Part shown: positions 4,447 to 63,791 of the stretch, piece by piece
Layout: every line of letters begins with the position of its first letter
Numbering within the stretch: the first letter of the stretch is position 1
Source of the DNA: Escherichia phage DCP548
DNA: 64,000 bases
Reading direction: 5' to 3' (one strand)
Sequence record: PQ671645.1
Notes under the pieces: model-generated
What the model saw: only the letters and a program-made list of their open reading frames with translations
Told to the model about the DNA's origin: nothing
Databases searched by the model: none
Program-made: the position numbers and the translations under genes

Positions 4447-4453
4447 CCCGAAA

Positions 4454-4469
4454 GGAGACCGAAGTCTCC
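4454..4469 (-). other. intercistronic RNA hairpin with UUCG tetraloop
   Basis: GGAGAC-UUCG-GUCUCC on minus-strand RNA just after the gene 41 stop, directly upstream of an early promoter. Confidence 0.5.
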
Positions 4470-4475
4470 TTTTTA

Positions 4476-5927: not shown

Positions 5928-6269
5928 TTAAAAGAATTTAAATTTTTTCTTGGTCCGTTCATTAAAAGCTTGTTGTACTTGCATTGTAACACATTTTTCA
6001 ACATGTGGTGCAAGTTCTGCTTTTCTGTCCTGGTCAAGAACTGCAAAGTCCATTACGATTTTACCATCAACCCAGTCTAGTTTTGTAATATAGACTATAT
6101 GATGAGAACCATCTTCAAGTGTAATCAGAATCTCTTGAATGACATTTTCCATTGCTGAACGGATAATTTTAAGAGATTCATTAAACACTCGTTCTTTGCG
6201 AATGTCTTCCCCTTCCGAAGAAGGGGATTCATCAACGATTTCTAGATTTAAATCATCGAGATTATTCAT
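5928..6269 (-). CDS. 40: gp40-like head vertex assembly chaperone
   Basis: ORF-track frame 5928..6413 trimmed to the ATG at 6269 (MNNLDDLN...), overlapping the uvsX stop by 8 nt; call is by synteny between uvsX and 41. Confidence 0.55.
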   Translation of the reverse strand: MNNLDDLNLEIVDESPSSEGEDIRKERVFNESLKIIRSAMENVIQEILITLEDGSHHIVYITKLDWVDGKIVMDFAVLDQDRKAELAPHVEKCVTMQVQQAFNERTKKKFKFF

Positions 6270-14121: not shown

Positions 14122-16833
14122 TCAAAAATCGAACATATCGAATAGAGATGCTTTCTTCTCGTAATCGAGTTTCGCTGCTGATGTGAATCCTTCAAGTGGT
14201 TTAATAAATGTCTTCTCAAGGAGAACAGTGTAGTCCATCCAATGAAGTACGTCGTCTTTAATTAAATCTGTGATTTCAGTACCAGAAGGCCATGCGATAC
14301 ATTTATCACCGAATGGGTTTCCTTCGCGTAAAGGCAGAACATATACTTTTTCACCTTCTACAACTTGCGGTGCATCGATATTACCTTTGATAGCCCGGTT
14401 ATACGTCAGAATTCCACGAATATGGAACGGGCATTTGGGACCAGGGAATCCACCTACATCATATTTAGCAATGTTATTCGCAGAAGATACCGACGCGATG
14501 CTAATATAATTCAATTGACGGAATTCTTTTTCAAACTCTTTAAAATATTCTTGTAATGATTCTTCACCTTCTTGAAGCATACGACGAATACATTCTTTAA
14601 GAGCTTTCTGTACTGCTTTAGGAGTCGAAGATTTCTGAGTCTCTAGACCCATGATTTTGAGTTTAGGCTCAGCGTAACGAGTACCTTCCATATCCCACAC
14701 GTTTAATGCATAACGTTTCTTACCAGTCCAGAATCCACCAATACCTTTAGAACCGAGTGGAGGACCAGCGATAGCTTCTCGGTCCATGAACATTAAGTGT
14801 TGTTTATTGTTCATGTATTCACACATTTCACGGAAACCTCTATCAATAGCTGGTTCCATACGTTCACGTGCAAACTTATCTAAGAAGTCTACCCAATGGT
14901 TGGTATCACGGAATTTAGATTCACCAACCTTATCGATAATTTTATCAGCAGATACGTAAATAGAGTCTGTATCACCATAAAGAACGAAAGCTTCACCTTC
15001 TGTGCCACAAACTTCATTCAGATATTCATTAACTTTACGTTCAATCCACTGTAAAGCCATTTGACCAAATGTTGTGATTGCAGTAGCATTACGCAAATCA
15101 TAATAACGAAACCAAACGTTGCCAAGTGCACCATAAAGTGAGTTGATAAGCAATTTACGGTTAATTTGGGCAGTCATACCTGCAACTTCAGTACGTTGAG
15201 CTCTAAACAACATTTCATTAAGAGATTTAGCAGACAACTTTTTAATCTTTTCTTTAATCTCATCGCTGAAGTCGAAACGATAATCAACATCTAATGGTTC
15301 GTCAACAGAAAGATTAGGATTATGCAATGCCTCTTTAATTATTTCACCATTACGTTGAGCTGCAAGCATGTAACCTTTATGTTCTTTACGTTGATTAAAG
15401 ACCTTAGTGATTTCAGTTGGAACTACACCATCACGGTCTTTATAATACATCATGCCGTTAGGAGAACAACTGTACACATCAGAAGGACGTTCAGCAACAG
15501 CGTTAATATAATCATGCAATGGAGCTACTTTAAACGTTCCTGCTATTGTTTCTGGGCTAATATTCACTTGGCGAATAATACTTGGATACAGAGATGTAAG
15601 GTCGAAACTCATTACATATTTGTATCGATTTGGAATAGGTTCCTTAACAAAAGCGCCGGGATAAGGTTGAACCGGGTGAGAACGACCTTGTGGAATCACC
15701 TTGTTCTGCTCTTTAAGGCTATTAAAAATAATAGCATCCCATGTTTTAATTGGGCTAAACACAGATTGAATCTGTATCTTAGCATAATAACCCATGTCCA
15801 AACTCAAGTTGATGAACTGACGCTTAGCATCAATTTGCAATACACGATACACATCGATAATGTTATAAGAAATATATCGTTGGTGATTGCTTTCACGAAG
15901 CTTAGAAATAGGGCCGTCATATTTCAGTTTACCAACGTTCAATTCAAATTCTGAAATGTAATCCAGAGAATATGACGGCTGATTGGTAAAAGAGAATTTT
16001 TTGTAAAGGTCAATGTAATCAAGAACAGAGATACCGAATAATGTAATGATTTCACGAGAACCATACATGTTTTCGATAACTTTAACACGAGTTTTACGAT
16101 GTGGTGATAAACGTTTCGCAGTAGATTCGCCAAAAATATTCTTGATTCGGTTATACACATATGGAATATCAAATGACTCAACGTTCCATCCAGTCAAAAT
16201 GACAGGAGTTTTCTGTTGCCAGAAGTTGAGATATTCCATCAACAATTCTTTTTCGTTATCGAACGGCATATAAATGATTTTATCGATAATTTCGGATGGA
16301 ACTTCATCACCGCCTTGTTCTTGAAGCTTAGCAGCGATTTCAATAGACCATTCTTCTACATTACCATATGGAGAATTCAATAGATCAAATACGTAGAACC
16401 TGTCGTCAATTGAGTCATAATGGGTGATAGCATCAATCGGATGTTTTGCTTGTGACGGCTCAGGGAACCCATCTGGAGATGTTACTTCGATGTCGAAGTT
16501 AGCCACACGAATTTTTGTATGGTCGTATTTGATTTCATAGTTATAAGTGTCAGACAAATACGCCAATTTGAAATCGTCCATGCCAAGTGCTTCAAGTCCG
16601 ATATCTTCCATGCGTTTAATCCATTGTGAGGCATCACGCATATTGGCGAACAACTTACGAGTACACGGCTTACCGTAGATATCGAAATATTTCGTAGCCT
16701 GACTTTCTGGACAATGAGCAAACAGTGATGGTTTATATTCTACTTCACGAGTACGTTCACGGCCGTTAGAATCGATGTAACGTTCAAAAATTGAATCACC
16801 AATCTGTTCAACCGTTAAGTAAAATTCTTTCAT
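14122..16833 (-). CDS. 43: DNA polymerase gp43 (family B)
   Basis: 903 aa; MKEFYLTVEQIGDSIFERYIDSNGRE..., exo motif FDIEV, pol motifs YGDTDS and SLYPS; matches remembered RB69 gp43. Confidence 0.97.
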   Translation of the reverse strand: MKEFYLTVEQIGDSIFERYIDSNGRERTREVEYKPSLFAHCPESQATKYFDIYGKPCTRKLFANMRDASQWIKRMEDIGLEALGMDDFKLAYLSDTYNYEIKYDHTKIRVANFDIEVTSPDGFPEPSQAKHPIDAITHYDSIDDRFYVFDLLNSPYGNVEEWSIEIAAKLQEQGGDEVPSEIIDKIIYMPFDNEKELLMEYLNFWQQKTPVILTGWNVESFDIPYVYNRIKNIFGESTAKRLSPHRKTRVKVIENMYGSREIITLFGISVLDYIDLYKKFSFTNQPSYSLDYISEFELNVGKLKYDGPISKLRESNHQRYISYNIIDVYRVLQIDAKRQFINLSLDMGYYAKIQIQSVFSPIKTWDAIIFNSLKEQNKVIPQGRSHPVQPYPGAFVKEPIPNRYKYVMSFDLTSLYPSIIRQVNISPETIAGTFKVAPLHDYINAVAERPSDVYSCSPNGMMYYKDRDGVVPTEITKVFNQRKEHKGYMLAAQRNGEIIKEALHNPNLSVDEPLDVDYRFDFSDEIKEKIKKLSAKSLNEMLFRAQRTEVAGMTAQINRKLLINSLYGALGNVWFRYYDLRNATAITTFGQMALQWIERKVNEYLNEVCGTEGEAFVLYGDTDSIYVSADKIIDKVGESKFRDTNHWVDFLDKFARERMEPAIDRGFREMCEYMNNKQHLMFMDREAIAGPPLGSKGIGGFWTGKKRYALNVWDMEGTRYAEPKLKIMGLETQKSSTPKAVQKALKECIRRMLQEGEESLQEYFKEFEKEFRQLNYISIASVSSANNIAKYDVGGFPGPKCPFHIRGILTYNRAIKGNIDAPQVVEGEKVYVLPLREGNPFGDKCIAWPSGTEITDLIKDDVLHWMDYTVLLEKTFIKPLEGFTSAAKLDYEKKASLFDMFDF

Positions 16834-16845
16834 TTAATTTCCTTT

Positions 16846-16861
16846 AGACGAGTTATTGTCT
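16846..16861 (-). promoter_or_regulatory. candidate gene 43 translational operator hairpin
   Basis: AGAC-AAUAACUC-GUCU (4-bp stem, 8-nt loop) directly 5' of the AGGAA RBS of gene 43; resembles the remembered T4 gp43 autoregulatory operator. Confidence 0.4.
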
Positions 16862-16892
16862 TTTGTTTGTTGATGAACTTATTATACTCCAA

Positions 16893-16910
16893 ATGGGACC
16901 GAAGTCCCAT
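16893..16910 (-). other. intercistronic RNA hairpin with UUCG tetraloop
   Basis: AUGGGAC-UUCG-GUCCCAU 5 nt after the regA stop, followed by a TATAAT. Confidence 0.5.
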
Positions 16911-16914
16911 TGCT

Positions 16915-17292
16915 TTAATTACCAATTGTATATTTTGCTTTCAAAGTCCAGTCATCTTTCTGTTTAAAAGAGATAACACGGAAGTTATTAGTCAGGCCAA
17001 ACAGATCTTCACGAGCAGAGTCTTCAATAACAATCAATCCCCAGTCTTCAAGCAACTGAGCAATCGAATCACGTCGCTGATAGTCTTCACCATCAATATC
17101 AACCTGACGTCCGTCCATACGCAGCATTTCTTTAAAGTGGACGATATAGTACTTACCTTGCTTTTGGAGGATATGACAAGACTGGTAAAGGACTTTATCC
17201 TTGTTATTAGCGATGCCCATACGGGTCAAAGTCTCTTTGACTTTTAGAAAATCTTCAGGGTTCTTCAATTTAATTTCAATCATTTTTACCAT
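16915..17292 (-). CDS. regA: RegA translational repressor
   Basis: 125 aa; [29 protein letters not shown] and [11 protein letters not shown] match remembered T4 RegA. Confidence 0.9.
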
Positions 17293-23520: not shown

Positions 23521-23546
23521 AAAAAAAGGAACTCCGAAGAGTTCCT
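23521..23546 (-). terminator. rho-independent terminator
   Basis: Minus-strand RNA: AGGAACUC-UUCG-GAGUUCCU followed by UUUUUUU. Confidence 0.7.
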
Positions 23547-34450: not shown

Positions 34451-34480
34451 ATTATACTCCAACCATCCTTGGTTGTAAAC
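34451..34480 (-). promoter_or_regulatory. early promoter with palindromic spacer
   Basis: Minus GTTTAC, aaCCAAGGATGGTTGGag, TATAAT. Confidence 0.55.
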
Positions 34481-35446: not shown

Positions 35447-35476
35447 ATTATACTCCAACCATCCTTGGTTGTACAT
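35447..35476 (-). promoter_or_regulatory. early promoter with palindromic spacer
   Basis: Minus ATGTAC, aaCCAAGGATGGTTGGag, TATAAT; near-copy of the 34451..34480 element. Confidence 0.5.
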
Positions 35477-38593: not shown

Positions 38594-38623
38594 CACTTTT
38601 TTAAATATTTTAACCCCCTAAAG

Positions 38624-38639
38624 GGACCCGAAGGTCCCC
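38624..38639 (-). other. intercistronic RNA hairpin with UUCG tetraloop
   Basis: GGGACC-UUCG-GGUCCC 4 nt after the stop of ORF 38644..38910, upstream of an early promoter. Confidence 0.5.
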
Positions 38640-58659: not shown

Positions 58660-59052
58660 TTATTTTGGCATATCATCAATTTGCTCTCGACGCCGACGCC
58701 ATAGATTAATCGCTTCATAAACACATTCTGCGTTTGGTATATGACGGCAATAATATAATGATTCGCGTTTCTGGAACCGATGTTGTAATGGAATTTCGTT
58801 TAAAAGGTCTTTACGATCAAAGTATTCAAAACTAGTTAACCCAGAACGATTTTTAAGGAACTTCCAATGGCCAAATTCATTTTGGAAATAAACGTAATCA
58901 GCGTGTTGATATAACGAATTAATCAACCGGTCGGAAATAACTGTATCCTGTTCATTAAAATAAAACGTTAAATCATGAACTACCAGATAAATATTACCTT
59001 TCATATTTTCCTCACTTAAAGTTGGTCGAGACAGAAGGATTCTAACCTTCAC
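58660..59052 (-). CDS. hypothetical protein
   Basis: 130-aa minus ORF next to the homing-endonuclease-like gene. Confidence 0.4.
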   Translation of the reverse strand: MKVRILLSRPTLSEENMKGNIYLVVHDLTFYFNEQDTVISDRLINSLYQHADYVYFQNEFGHWKFLKNRSGLTSFEYFDRKDLLNEIPLQHRFQKRESLYYCRHIPNAECVYEAINLWRRRREQIDDMPK

Positions 59053-59083
59053 CTTTAACCTTAGAATGATTATATGCTATCCA

Positions 59084-59752
59084 TTACACTATAGAAGCAA
59101 TTAAATTGTTTACTTTATCATCTTTATAAACTTCAGAATAGTGGAGTTCATAAATTTCCCAGCCCAGGGATTTTATAATATCATGTCTTTCCTGATAATA
59201 TGGGGCCAGAATTTTCTTGTTATGATCGGAGTAATGTTGGTTACCGTTAACTTCAATAATTATTTTCTTATCCATCAAAGCAATGTCACAGGAATATGCT
59301 CTATTTTTAACAGGTTGATATTCCTCAACAAATTGTATATTTGCTTCTATTAATTTATTTTTCAAAAATTCGCACGGAACAGATTTGAATTTTGAATTCT
59401 TTTTCCAAGGGTGTTTATCTGGATTTTCCTTTAACCAGGTCTTCCGGGCTGCTGATATCTTTTGTTTGGATTCAGACGAATGCTTTCGTCCTGTGCCTGC
59501 AGCAGACAATTTTTCTCTTGTTTCTTCAGAAACAACTAAAGAAATGCCCTTCTTTTTGGCAACCATGAATTGATTTAAATTACCAGATTCTTTGCGTGCT
59601 TTATTCATAGCAGCGACTGCATTTTTAGAACCCTCTTTATAAGAGGCGAGTTTTGGATTTTCAGAACACCATCTGGTATGACTTGCCATCCATCCCTTTG
59701 GTTTATCAGAAATATCAAATTCTTTATTGCAGTGTTTGCAGATGCTCATCAA
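59084..59752 (-). CDS. homing-endonuclease-like protein (zinc finger + NUMOD3-like repeats + DUF559/PD-(D/E)xK-like C-terminus)
   Basis: 222 aa; N-terminal CKHC...HTRWC; SEETREKLSAAGTGRK and SESKQKISAARK NUMOD3-like repeats; C-terminal YSCDIALMDKKIIIEVNGNQHY. Confidence 0.5.
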   Translation of the reverse strand: MMSICKHCNKEFDISDKPKGWMASHTRWCSENPKLASYKEGSKNAVAAMNKARKESGNLNQFMVAKKKGISLVVSEETREKLSAAGTGRKHSSESKQKISAARKTWLKENPDKHPWKKNSKFKSVPCEFLKNKLIEANIQFVEEYQPVKNRAYSCDIALMDKKIIIEVNGNQHYSDHNKKILAPYYQERHDIIKSLGWEIYELHYSEVYKDDKVNNLIASIV

Positions 59753-59808: not shown

Positions 59809-59883
59809 TGGTGACCCTGGCTGGTTTCGATCCAGCTACCTATCAGTTATGAGCTGACAGCTCTCCCATTGAGCTACAGGGCC
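59809..59883 (-). tRNA. tRNA, anticodon CAU (Met or Ile2), with encoded CCA
   Basis: Hand-folded cloverleaf on minus strand: acceptor GGCCCTG/CAGGGTC, D-arm GCTC-AATGGGA-GAGC, anticodon loop CTCATAA, T-arm GCTGG-ATCGAAA-CCAGC, 3' ACCA. Confidence 0.7.
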
Positions 59884-63153: not shown

Positions 63154-63206
63154 AGGTTTTCCTCATATAATTTATGAGTGATTATAACATACGGAGCTAG
63201 AAGCGA

Positions 63207-63791
63207 TTAACGCAAGGAAGGGTGTCTAGAAATGGATTTAGATTCGACCGCTTGACGTGGTTGTTGAGATACAATGACTTCACCATCCTTTTCTATCGTC
63301 ATATACGCGTAGTGAATAGTTGCTACGCACGTAACGGCAGGGTCAGAGTCTTCGGTGTAACTAAATTCGATTTCACTCAAATCAGAAATCCATGGTTTAT
63401 AGAAATTCGCCGTCAAAACTACTTCTGTCTTATTGTTGTTTAAAATGTGCAAAGTAACAAACTCAGGACCATCGGAGTGGGCCGTATTATGTCCGGTTAT
63501 ATAGTTATTAGTGCTGAGCATCCATTTATACATGTTCATCCAGGACGTCATGTCTTCATCAACTATAAATCGTACAACAAAAGGGTCGTATTCAAATGTG
63601 GTGCCTGCACGCATTGCACGTCCTAACCCCATTGTGCCTGTCACAGTTTCAACAACAGGAATTCTCACACCTGGCAATGGAGCCGTTTGGGCATTGAGCA
63701 CAAAACCTGACGTTCGTGTACTATCCGGGATATCCACAACAAAGTTTGTTATATTTGTTTGGTTAAAAATCTGTCTCGCTGGACGAGTCAT
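63207..63791 (-). CDS. 3: gp3-like tail completion / sheath stabiliser protein (by synteny)
   Basis: Track ORF trimmed to ATG at 63791 (MTRPARQ...) with GAGGT RBS; position upstream of gene 1 as in T4. Confidence 0.6.
   Translation of the reverse strand: MTRPARQIFNQTNITNFVVDIPDSTRTSGFVLNAQTAPLPGVRIPVVETVTGTMGLGRAMRAGTTFEYDPFVVRFIVDEDMTSWMNMYKWMLSTNNYITGHNTAHSDGPEFVTLHILNNNKTEVVLTANFYKPWISDLSEIEFSYTEDSDPAVTCVATIHYAYMTIEKDGEVIVSQQPRQAVESKSISRHPSLR

Follow-up and report, generated by a model that had tools for sequence, protein, structure and literature searches.

A probable T4-type control module for the DNA polymerase gene between regA and gene 43 of Escherichia phage DCP548

The 81-nt spacer that separates regA from gene 43 in Escherichia phage DCP548 is very probably the conserved control module of a T4-type DNA polymerase gene, consisting of three adjoining parts: a hairpin, a promoter and an operator. 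The window analyzed here is the whole 64,000-nt stretch taken from sequence record PQ671645.1, and all coordinates refer to it. The mRNA sense of regA and gene 43 is the minus strand, on which the genes are ordered gene 43, regA and then 62, 44 and 45. Read as mRNA, the spacer together with its bordering stop and start codons is UAA-AGC-AAUGGGAC-UUCG-GUCCCAUU-U-GGAG-UAUAAU-AAGUUCAUCAACAAACAAA-AGAC-AAUAACUC-GUCU-A-AAGGA-AAUUAA-AUG.

Gene 43 (14122..16833, minus strand; AUG at 16831..16833) encodes the 903-residue DNA polymerase gp43. The translational repressor gene regA (16915..17292, minus strand; Pfam Translat_reg, E = 4.9e-60) ends in a UAA stop codon at 16915..16917, and it is the gene whose transcripts enter the UUCG hairpin from upstream. 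Every base of the spacer is the same as in phage RB69 (NC_004928), and gp43 matches RB69 gp43 at 903 of 903 residues and T4 gp43 with 62% identity. Compared with the RB69-like phages (Mosigvirus), the regA-43 region is 95-100% identical. Among Mosigvirus records, 144 of 157 share the spacer alone at 99% identity or more, whereas for an 801-nt region that includes the coding flanks only 20 of 170 records reach the same level. A spacer that is more conserved than the genes beside it bears the signature of a constrained non-coding element.

Both hairpins of the spacer are contained in the RNAfold minimum free energy (MFE) structure of the region. Taken as a whole, the 101-nt region folds no better than its shuffles (z = -1.28), a comparison that is uninformative. 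At gathering thresholds, Rfam returns no family over the spacer, and its only matches in the window are two tRNA genes located elsewhere (59032..59093 and 59812..59883, minus strand). Sub-threshold matches over the spacer, among them preQ1-II (21.7 bits, cutoff 47), are rejected as noise. None of the operator, the UUCG hairpin and the promoter elements is represented by an Rfam family.

The part of the module next to gene 43 is the operator. Its hairpin (16846..16861, minus strand) is identical to that of RB69 and consists of a 4-bp stem and an 8-nt loop, with AGAC at 16861-16858, AAUAACUC at 16857-16850 and GUCU at 16849-16846. The 3' part of the operator is an A-rich single strand (16834..16845, minus strand) that is unpaired in the MFE fold and holds the Shine-Dalgarno sequence AAGGA (16840..16844, minus strand) one base past the hairpin. 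From the end of the hairpin to the AUG of gene 43 the distance is 12 nt. On its own, the hairpin is weak at -2.2 kcal/mol, with 12 of 200 shuffles equally good, and the bare octamer AATAACTC is not enriched in the window (3 found, 4.2 expected). The 16-mer that makes up the entire operator hairpin occurs once in the window. Thermodynamics alone is insufficient to call an operator here; since the lone hairpin is weak and the octamer is not enriched, the significance of the element rests on homology.

The primary work on the RB69 operator is said to be that of Wang, Pavlov & Karam 1997 and of Petrov & Karam 2002. A 2010 review (PMC3014915) describes gp43 as an autogenous translational repressor whose target combines a hairpin with a sequence overlapping the ribosome binding site (RBS). 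By its account the hairpin is 18 nt long in T4 and 16 nt in RB69, the loop is common to both phages, and the loop core -UAAC- was also picked by the first SELEX experiment. These lengths fit the sequences, with 18 nt for AGCCU-AAUAACUC-GGGCU of T4 and 16 nt for AGAC-AAUAACUC-GUCU of the window. The same review reports that RB69 gp43 binds the operator RNA, with crosslinks located to the palm domain; a gel shift of gp43 with leader RNA, as proposed in the preliminary description, would address a binding event that has already been reported (PMC3014915). The T4 and RB69 polymerases are both RNA-binding autogenous repressors that differ in RNA specificity, and their binding of specific RNA and of DNA is mutually exclusive (PMC535899).

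The features of this operator family are present in the window, namely a leader hairpin directly 5' of the Shine-Dalgarno sequence, a AAUAACUC loop with a UAAC core and a cognate RNA-binding family B DNA polymerase of the T4/RB69 lineage. Judged by every sequence feature compared, the window hairpin is the RB69 gp43 translational operator itself. For RB69 and T4, published experiments have established that gp43 represses its own translation through this operator. Because the leader RNA and the gp43 protein are both identical to those of RB69, the RB69 findings should apply directly to the window. The preliminary description had taken the AGAC-AAUAACUC-GUCU hairpin abutting the gene 43 RBS for a candidate gp43 operator, a reading borne out by the identity of both RNA and protein to RB69 and by the agreement with the published account (PMC3014915). 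At this locus the spacer, the 16-nt hairpin, the Shine-Dalgarno spacing and gp43 are the same as in RB69 and no difference is detectable; elsewhere the window is that of another Mosigvirus isolate, and its hairpin at 38622 has no exact match in RB69. The likeness to the T4 operator extends to the AAUAACUC loop, the place before the gene 43 RBS, the upstream UUCG hairpin and the decamer GGAGTATAAT. In contrast, the stem is longer by one pair in T4 (5 bp, AGCCU/GGGCU, closed by U-G) than in the window (4 bp), the hairpin lies 18 nt from the AUG in T4 and 12 nt from it in the window, and TATAAT and the operator hairpin are 8 nt apart in T4 and 19 nt apart in the window.

At the regA end of the spacer lies a C(UUCG)G hairpin, AAUGGGAC-UUCG-GUCCCAUU (16892..16911, minus strand; loop at 16900..16903), which begins 3 nt past the regA stop codon. 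The preliminary description had the place right but ended the hairpin at 16910, whereas its GC-rich stem comprises 8 bp and reaches 16911. The hairpin is strong at -11.1 kcal/mol (z = -4.3), and none of 200 shuffles is as stable. Its T4 counterpart at the regA-43 junction is AAGGGGC-UUCG-GCCCCUU. According to PMC4371310, which recounts Tuerk et al. 1988, it was in T4 mRNA that the UUCG tetraloop first came to notice, and Durand et al. (PMC1702504) remark that UUCG is frequent in the intergenic stem-loops of T4, terminators for example. The regA-43 hairpin is a member of this T4 C(UUCG)G class. It shares the UUCG loop, the C-G closure, the GC-rich stem, the sense-strand orientation and the placement after a stop codon with the intercistronic hairpins of T4, and there is no difference in kind, although the U tail of the window member is short.

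The U tract 3' of the regA-43 hairpin is AUUUGGAG, and the tails of its relatives are UUUU or longer. A simple terminator scan makes no call for the hairpin on the sense strand; the palindrome does score as terminator-like on the plus strand in the same kind of scan. In the record of a nearly identical phage (OL960576), a rho-independent terminator assigned by TransTermHP/WebGeSTer overlaps a middle-type promoter, whereas at the regA-43 position of RB69 the supplements of Nolan et al. 2006 show no terminator and no middle promoter. Because the U run is short and the public calls disagree, the strength of the hairpin as a terminator is uncertain. From its sequence, the hairpin probably fits a transcript-end element that acts as a leaky terminator, as a block to 3'-exonucleases, or as both.

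Hairpins of this class recur. Counting stems of at least 7 bp, the window holds five C(UUCG)G hairpins, every one of them on the sense strand; the opposite strand has none, and dinucleotide shuffles yield a mean of 0.03. Four of the five stand after a stop codon and ahead of a promoter-like sequence. Besides the regA-43 hairpin, one at 4451..4472 (minus strand) comes right after the gene 41 stop codon and is followed by the early-type promoter-like sequence GTTTAC-N18-TATGAT. Another at 38622..38639 (minus strand) follows the stop codon of an 88-aa ORF, with ATGCTTTTA and TATTAT about 40 nt further on. These two places correspond to those where the pattern of a UUCG hairpin and then a promoter had already been pointed out (after gene 41 and at 38624..38639), and the repeat is indeed seen there. 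Two hairpins add to that earlier list. The first (23527..23546, minus strand) lies after a-gt.2, carries a U7 tail and precedes a MotA box and -10 of the form TTTGCTTTA-N11-TAGAAT upstream of gene 47; the second, UCCCCUUC-UUCG-GAAGGGGA (6208..6227, minus strand; -13.5 kcal/mol), is inside the coding sequence of gene 40. In the first 50 kb of T4 there are nine such hairpins, again all on the sense strand, four of which stand directly before a MotA box or a -10. The succession of a UUCG hairpin and a promoter is a classic, known phenomenon of T4.

The hairpin within gene 40 lies 35 nt past the uvsX stop codon, and T4 carries UCCCCCUC-UUCG-GAGGGGGA at the same place of its gene 40 (NC_000866, 22329..22348, minus strand; locus L137). 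Both hairpins encode S-P-S-S-E-G-E. They differ by CCC to CCU and GAG to GAA, changes that are synonymous and also compensatory, converting a C-G pair to U-A. This comparison suggests selection on RNA structure within the ORF, and the hairpin may perhaps represent the 3' end of the uvsX message.

To place the spacer in a wider context, upstream regions of gene 43 were gathered from annotated phage records and from viral contigs, the latter with a pattern that itself contained GGAGTATAAT. The contig scan gave at least 120 stretches, and a stem of at least 4 bp surrounds the loop motif in 30 among the matches listed. Matches that have no gene 43-like start downstream are set aside as chance; in two of the rejected loci (L064 and L101) an unrelated 134-aa ORF has the GGAG as its ribosome site. 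The cassette is found in seven genera: Tequatro-, Mosig-, Dhaka-, Marfa-, Jiaoda-, Karam- and Kanagawavirus. Its order is a UNCG hairpin with a U run, GGAGTATAAT, a spacer of 8-19 nt, the operator hairpin AGNC(N)-AAUNACUC-G(N)NCU, an A-rich Shine-Dalgarno stretch and the AUG of gene 43. GGAGTATAAT is invariant in every true copy, with the qualification that the contig pattern contained this 10-mer. The sequence AAGCAA is conserved 5' of the UUCG hairpin in five of the seven genera, which is explained by shared ancestry of the cassette with nothing further needed.

Both stems are maintained across these copies. In the UNCG stem 99% of cells are paired, changes on both sides occur in 4 of 7 pairs, slid controls reach at most 71%, and the covariation score is matched by none of 500 shuffles. 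The operator stem, based on 7 distinct sequences, is paired in 91% of cells, against no more than 40% for slid controls, and both partners have changed in 3 of its 5 pairs. Natural operator loops, compared among loci L004, L005, L010, L011, L021 and others, vary only at position 4, which is A, C or U. The loop is AAUAACUC in Tequatro-, Mosig- and Jiaodavirus, AAUCACUC in Dhaka-, Karam- and Kanagawavirus, and AAUUACUC in Marfavirus and contig L021. The SELEX variant loop raised in the 2010 review is absent among the natural gene 43 leaders compared. In the Bragavirus phiP4-3, AUUCU-AAUCACUU-GGAAU stands ahead of gene 43 without GGAGTATAAT. Within the window, GUUAU-AAUCACUC-AUAA forms a 4-bp stem at 63176..63207 (minus strand), in a MotA-type promoter-like context of ATCGCTTCT-N12-TATAAT; here the octamer overlaps the TATAAT, so the resemblance to the operator loop is most likely due to chance.

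In phages with an additional ORF, 43.1 (among them RB32, IME08, PG7, PKO111 and Kosakonia 305), the cassette lies 3' of 43.1 and beside gene 43. Because it adjoins gene 43 despite the inserted ORF, the cassette belongs to gene 43 and not to regA. The preliminary description had placed the UUCG hairpin and TATAAT after the regA stop codon; this holds for the window, but the attachment of the module to regA does not hold for the 43.1 phages. ORF 43.1 itself is about 55-105 aa long and occurs in several genera, with a start codon that abuts the regA stop (UAAUAUG); its loci are L013 (RB32), L004 (IME08), L011 (PG7), L012 (PKO111), L010 (Kosakonia 305) and L015. In the IME08 record, the annotated start of gene 43 appears too far upstream, ahead of the cassette.

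Between the two hairpins is the third part of the module, GGAGTATAAT (16881..16890, minus strand), in which TATAAT (16881..16886) is a predicted -10 and GGAG (16887..16890) its conserved 5' context. TATAAT satisfies the -10 form TAnnnT and is unchanged across the seven genera. Conservation, public annotations and knowledge of T4 together point to this sequence as the gene 43 promoter. Two public records annotate a site resembling a T4 middle promoter at regA-43. By RNA-seq of T4, the region from gene 43 to 45 is strongly MotA-dependent, as a region in which individual promoters are not separated (PMC6024815). A possible -30 element is found in the DNA of the hairpin loop, gACTTCg, which places an ACTT core 15 bp 5' of TATAAT. 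Like a T4 middle promoter, the site has a TAnnnT -10 and a CTT-bearing element about 30 bp upstream of the start. The differences are that its core is ACTT rather than GCTT, lies inside a palindrome, and stands at 15 bp from the -10 rather than at the 14 bp of canonical middle promoters in the window and in T4. The gene 43 promoter region of T4 has GCTT 17 bp from TATAAT, and Kanagawavirus has no recognizable MotA box, the loop being UACG without CTT. Set against the MotA box (a/t)(a/t)TGCTT(t/c)A at 11-13 bp from the -10, the window offers only the ACTT core followed by C (gGACTTCGg), and the flanking positions depart from the T4 middle-promoter consensus. A MotA-type -30 element at the gene 43 promoter is plausible on this comparison, but it would be non-canonical.

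These observations raise the question of whether the UUCG hairpin is mainly a DNA element whose loop (gACTTCg in the window, gGCTTCg in T4) is the MotA box, with the palindrome secondary. Conservation would then reflect the binding of an activator and not RNA folding. The ACTT-TATAAT distance is one base off the canonical 14 bp, an ACTT core is in use at P46 of T4 (PMC2988021), and one of the two public records annotates exactly ACTT-N15-TATAAT as middle-promoter-like. However, the stem covaries to preserve its pairing, which recognition of DNA by MotA does not need, and the C(UUCG)G hairpins are all strand-specific. In Jiaoda- and Karamvirus the hairpin is 26-28 bp from TATAAT and a separate ACTT or GCTA is found at 14 bp, so that hairpin and MotA box are separable, and the UACG loop of Kanagawavirus dispenses with CTT altogether. 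We consider it somewhat unlikely that the DNA role is the main one. Since the RNA and MotA-box roles can coexist, the MotA-box reading adds to that of an RNA hairpin and does not replace it.

A candidate promoter on the plus strand, ATTGCTTTA-N13-TATTTT (16909..16935), would direct antisense transcription into regA. It is probably no promoter: it overlaps C-terminal codons of regA, and its -10 is not conserved where ORF 43.1 replaces that flank. Its MotA-like box, ATTGCTTTA, corresponds on the opposite strand to the conserved AAGCAA that precedes the UUCG hairpin.

For the GGAG of GGAGTATAAT, a role in RNA may be considered as well. In this alternative, the invariant GGAG is kept as a site for the RegB/S1 endonuclease, and read-through RNA is cut between the hairpin and the operator, leaving a hairpin-capped regA mRNA and inactivating or trimming the polycistronic gene 43 leader. 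The sequence GGAGUAUAAUA fits the 11-nt RegB/S1 target consensus GGAGAAUAAAA (PMC1702504): positions 6, 8 and 11 are A, position 7 is U, and C is absent. The regB gene is encoded within the window, and GGAG is unusual as the -16..-13 context of the MotA-type promoters of the window. Against this, a less favored base, U, stands at positions 5 and 10, and of 68 T4 intergenic GGAG motifs Durand et al. (PMC1702504) report 42 as resistant, with 26 sites cleaved by RegB. Copies of GGAGTATAAT are also found elsewhere, namely in a pair of early-type promoters of the window and, in T4, behind a different UUCG hairpin where the setting is that of a middle-type promoter; because of this recurrence, promoter function alone can explain the conservation of GGAG. 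Maintenance of the GGAG as a RegB/S1 site is accordingly judged improbable. The two early-type promoters are identical over 29 nt (TTTACAACCAAGGATGGTTGGAGTATAAT; 35456..35447 and 34460..34451, minus strand), stand before adjacent ORFs of about 311-314 aa and, like the gene 43 promoter, contain the GGAGTATAAT decamer.

That the hairpins are functionless chance palindromes of an AT-rich spacer is almost certainly wrong and already refuted by the comparative data, for although the operator stem has just 4 bp at -2.2 kcal/mol and the 101-nt region folds like its shuffles (z = -1.28), the sequence is the same as that of an experimentally characterized operator, both stems carry compensatory changes, the spacer is better conserved than the neighboring genes, and C(UUCG)G hairpins are enriched and strand-biased.

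Returning to the conserved control module, its parts suggest how transcription and translation of gene 43 may be arranged. The UUCG hairpin may mark and protect the 3' end of 45-44-62-regA transcripts, probably by combining a leaky intrinsic terminator with a block to 3'-exonucleases. Transcription would restart about 7 nt past the TATAAT of GGAGTATAAT, giving a polymerase mRNA whose 5' end lies a few bases before the operator. These transcription steps lean on secondary sources and on results attributed to Hsu & Karam 1990 and Yeh et al. 1998. A transcript initiated from the TATAAT would carry the operator hairpin only, and both hairpins share one RNA only on read-through transcripts from upstream. 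On the polymerase mRNA, free gp43 would bind the operator, that is, the hairpin and the A-rich strand into the Shine-Dalgarno sequence, and stop ribosomes from loading. Because RNA and DNA binding are exclusive, translation would be repressed only when polymerase exceeds its DNA substrates.

A more far-reaching proposal is that one 30-bp stretch serves three uses jointly: as an RNA hairpin by which regA transcripts are ended or protected, as DNA whose loop (A/G)CTTC is the core of a MotA box for renewed initiation of gene 43 transcription, and, through GGAGUAUAAUA, as a RegB/S1 site at which any read-through RNA is cut just before the operator. We regard the joint use as unlikely. If true, there would be three levels at which polymerase synthesis is uncoupled from the genes for the clamp and the clamp loader.

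The operator and the UUCG hairpin are textbook parts of T4-type phages and nothing new, and the significance of finding them here is slight beyond correct annotation. The gp43 operator is the classic case of an enzyme that senses its own excess by an RNA decoy, and the T4 version was the RNA target in the first SELEX experiment. What the comparison adds is descriptive, namely a single cassette that travels with gene 43 and an operator loop that varies at position 4. Both could guide the annotation of gene 43 in T4-like phages.
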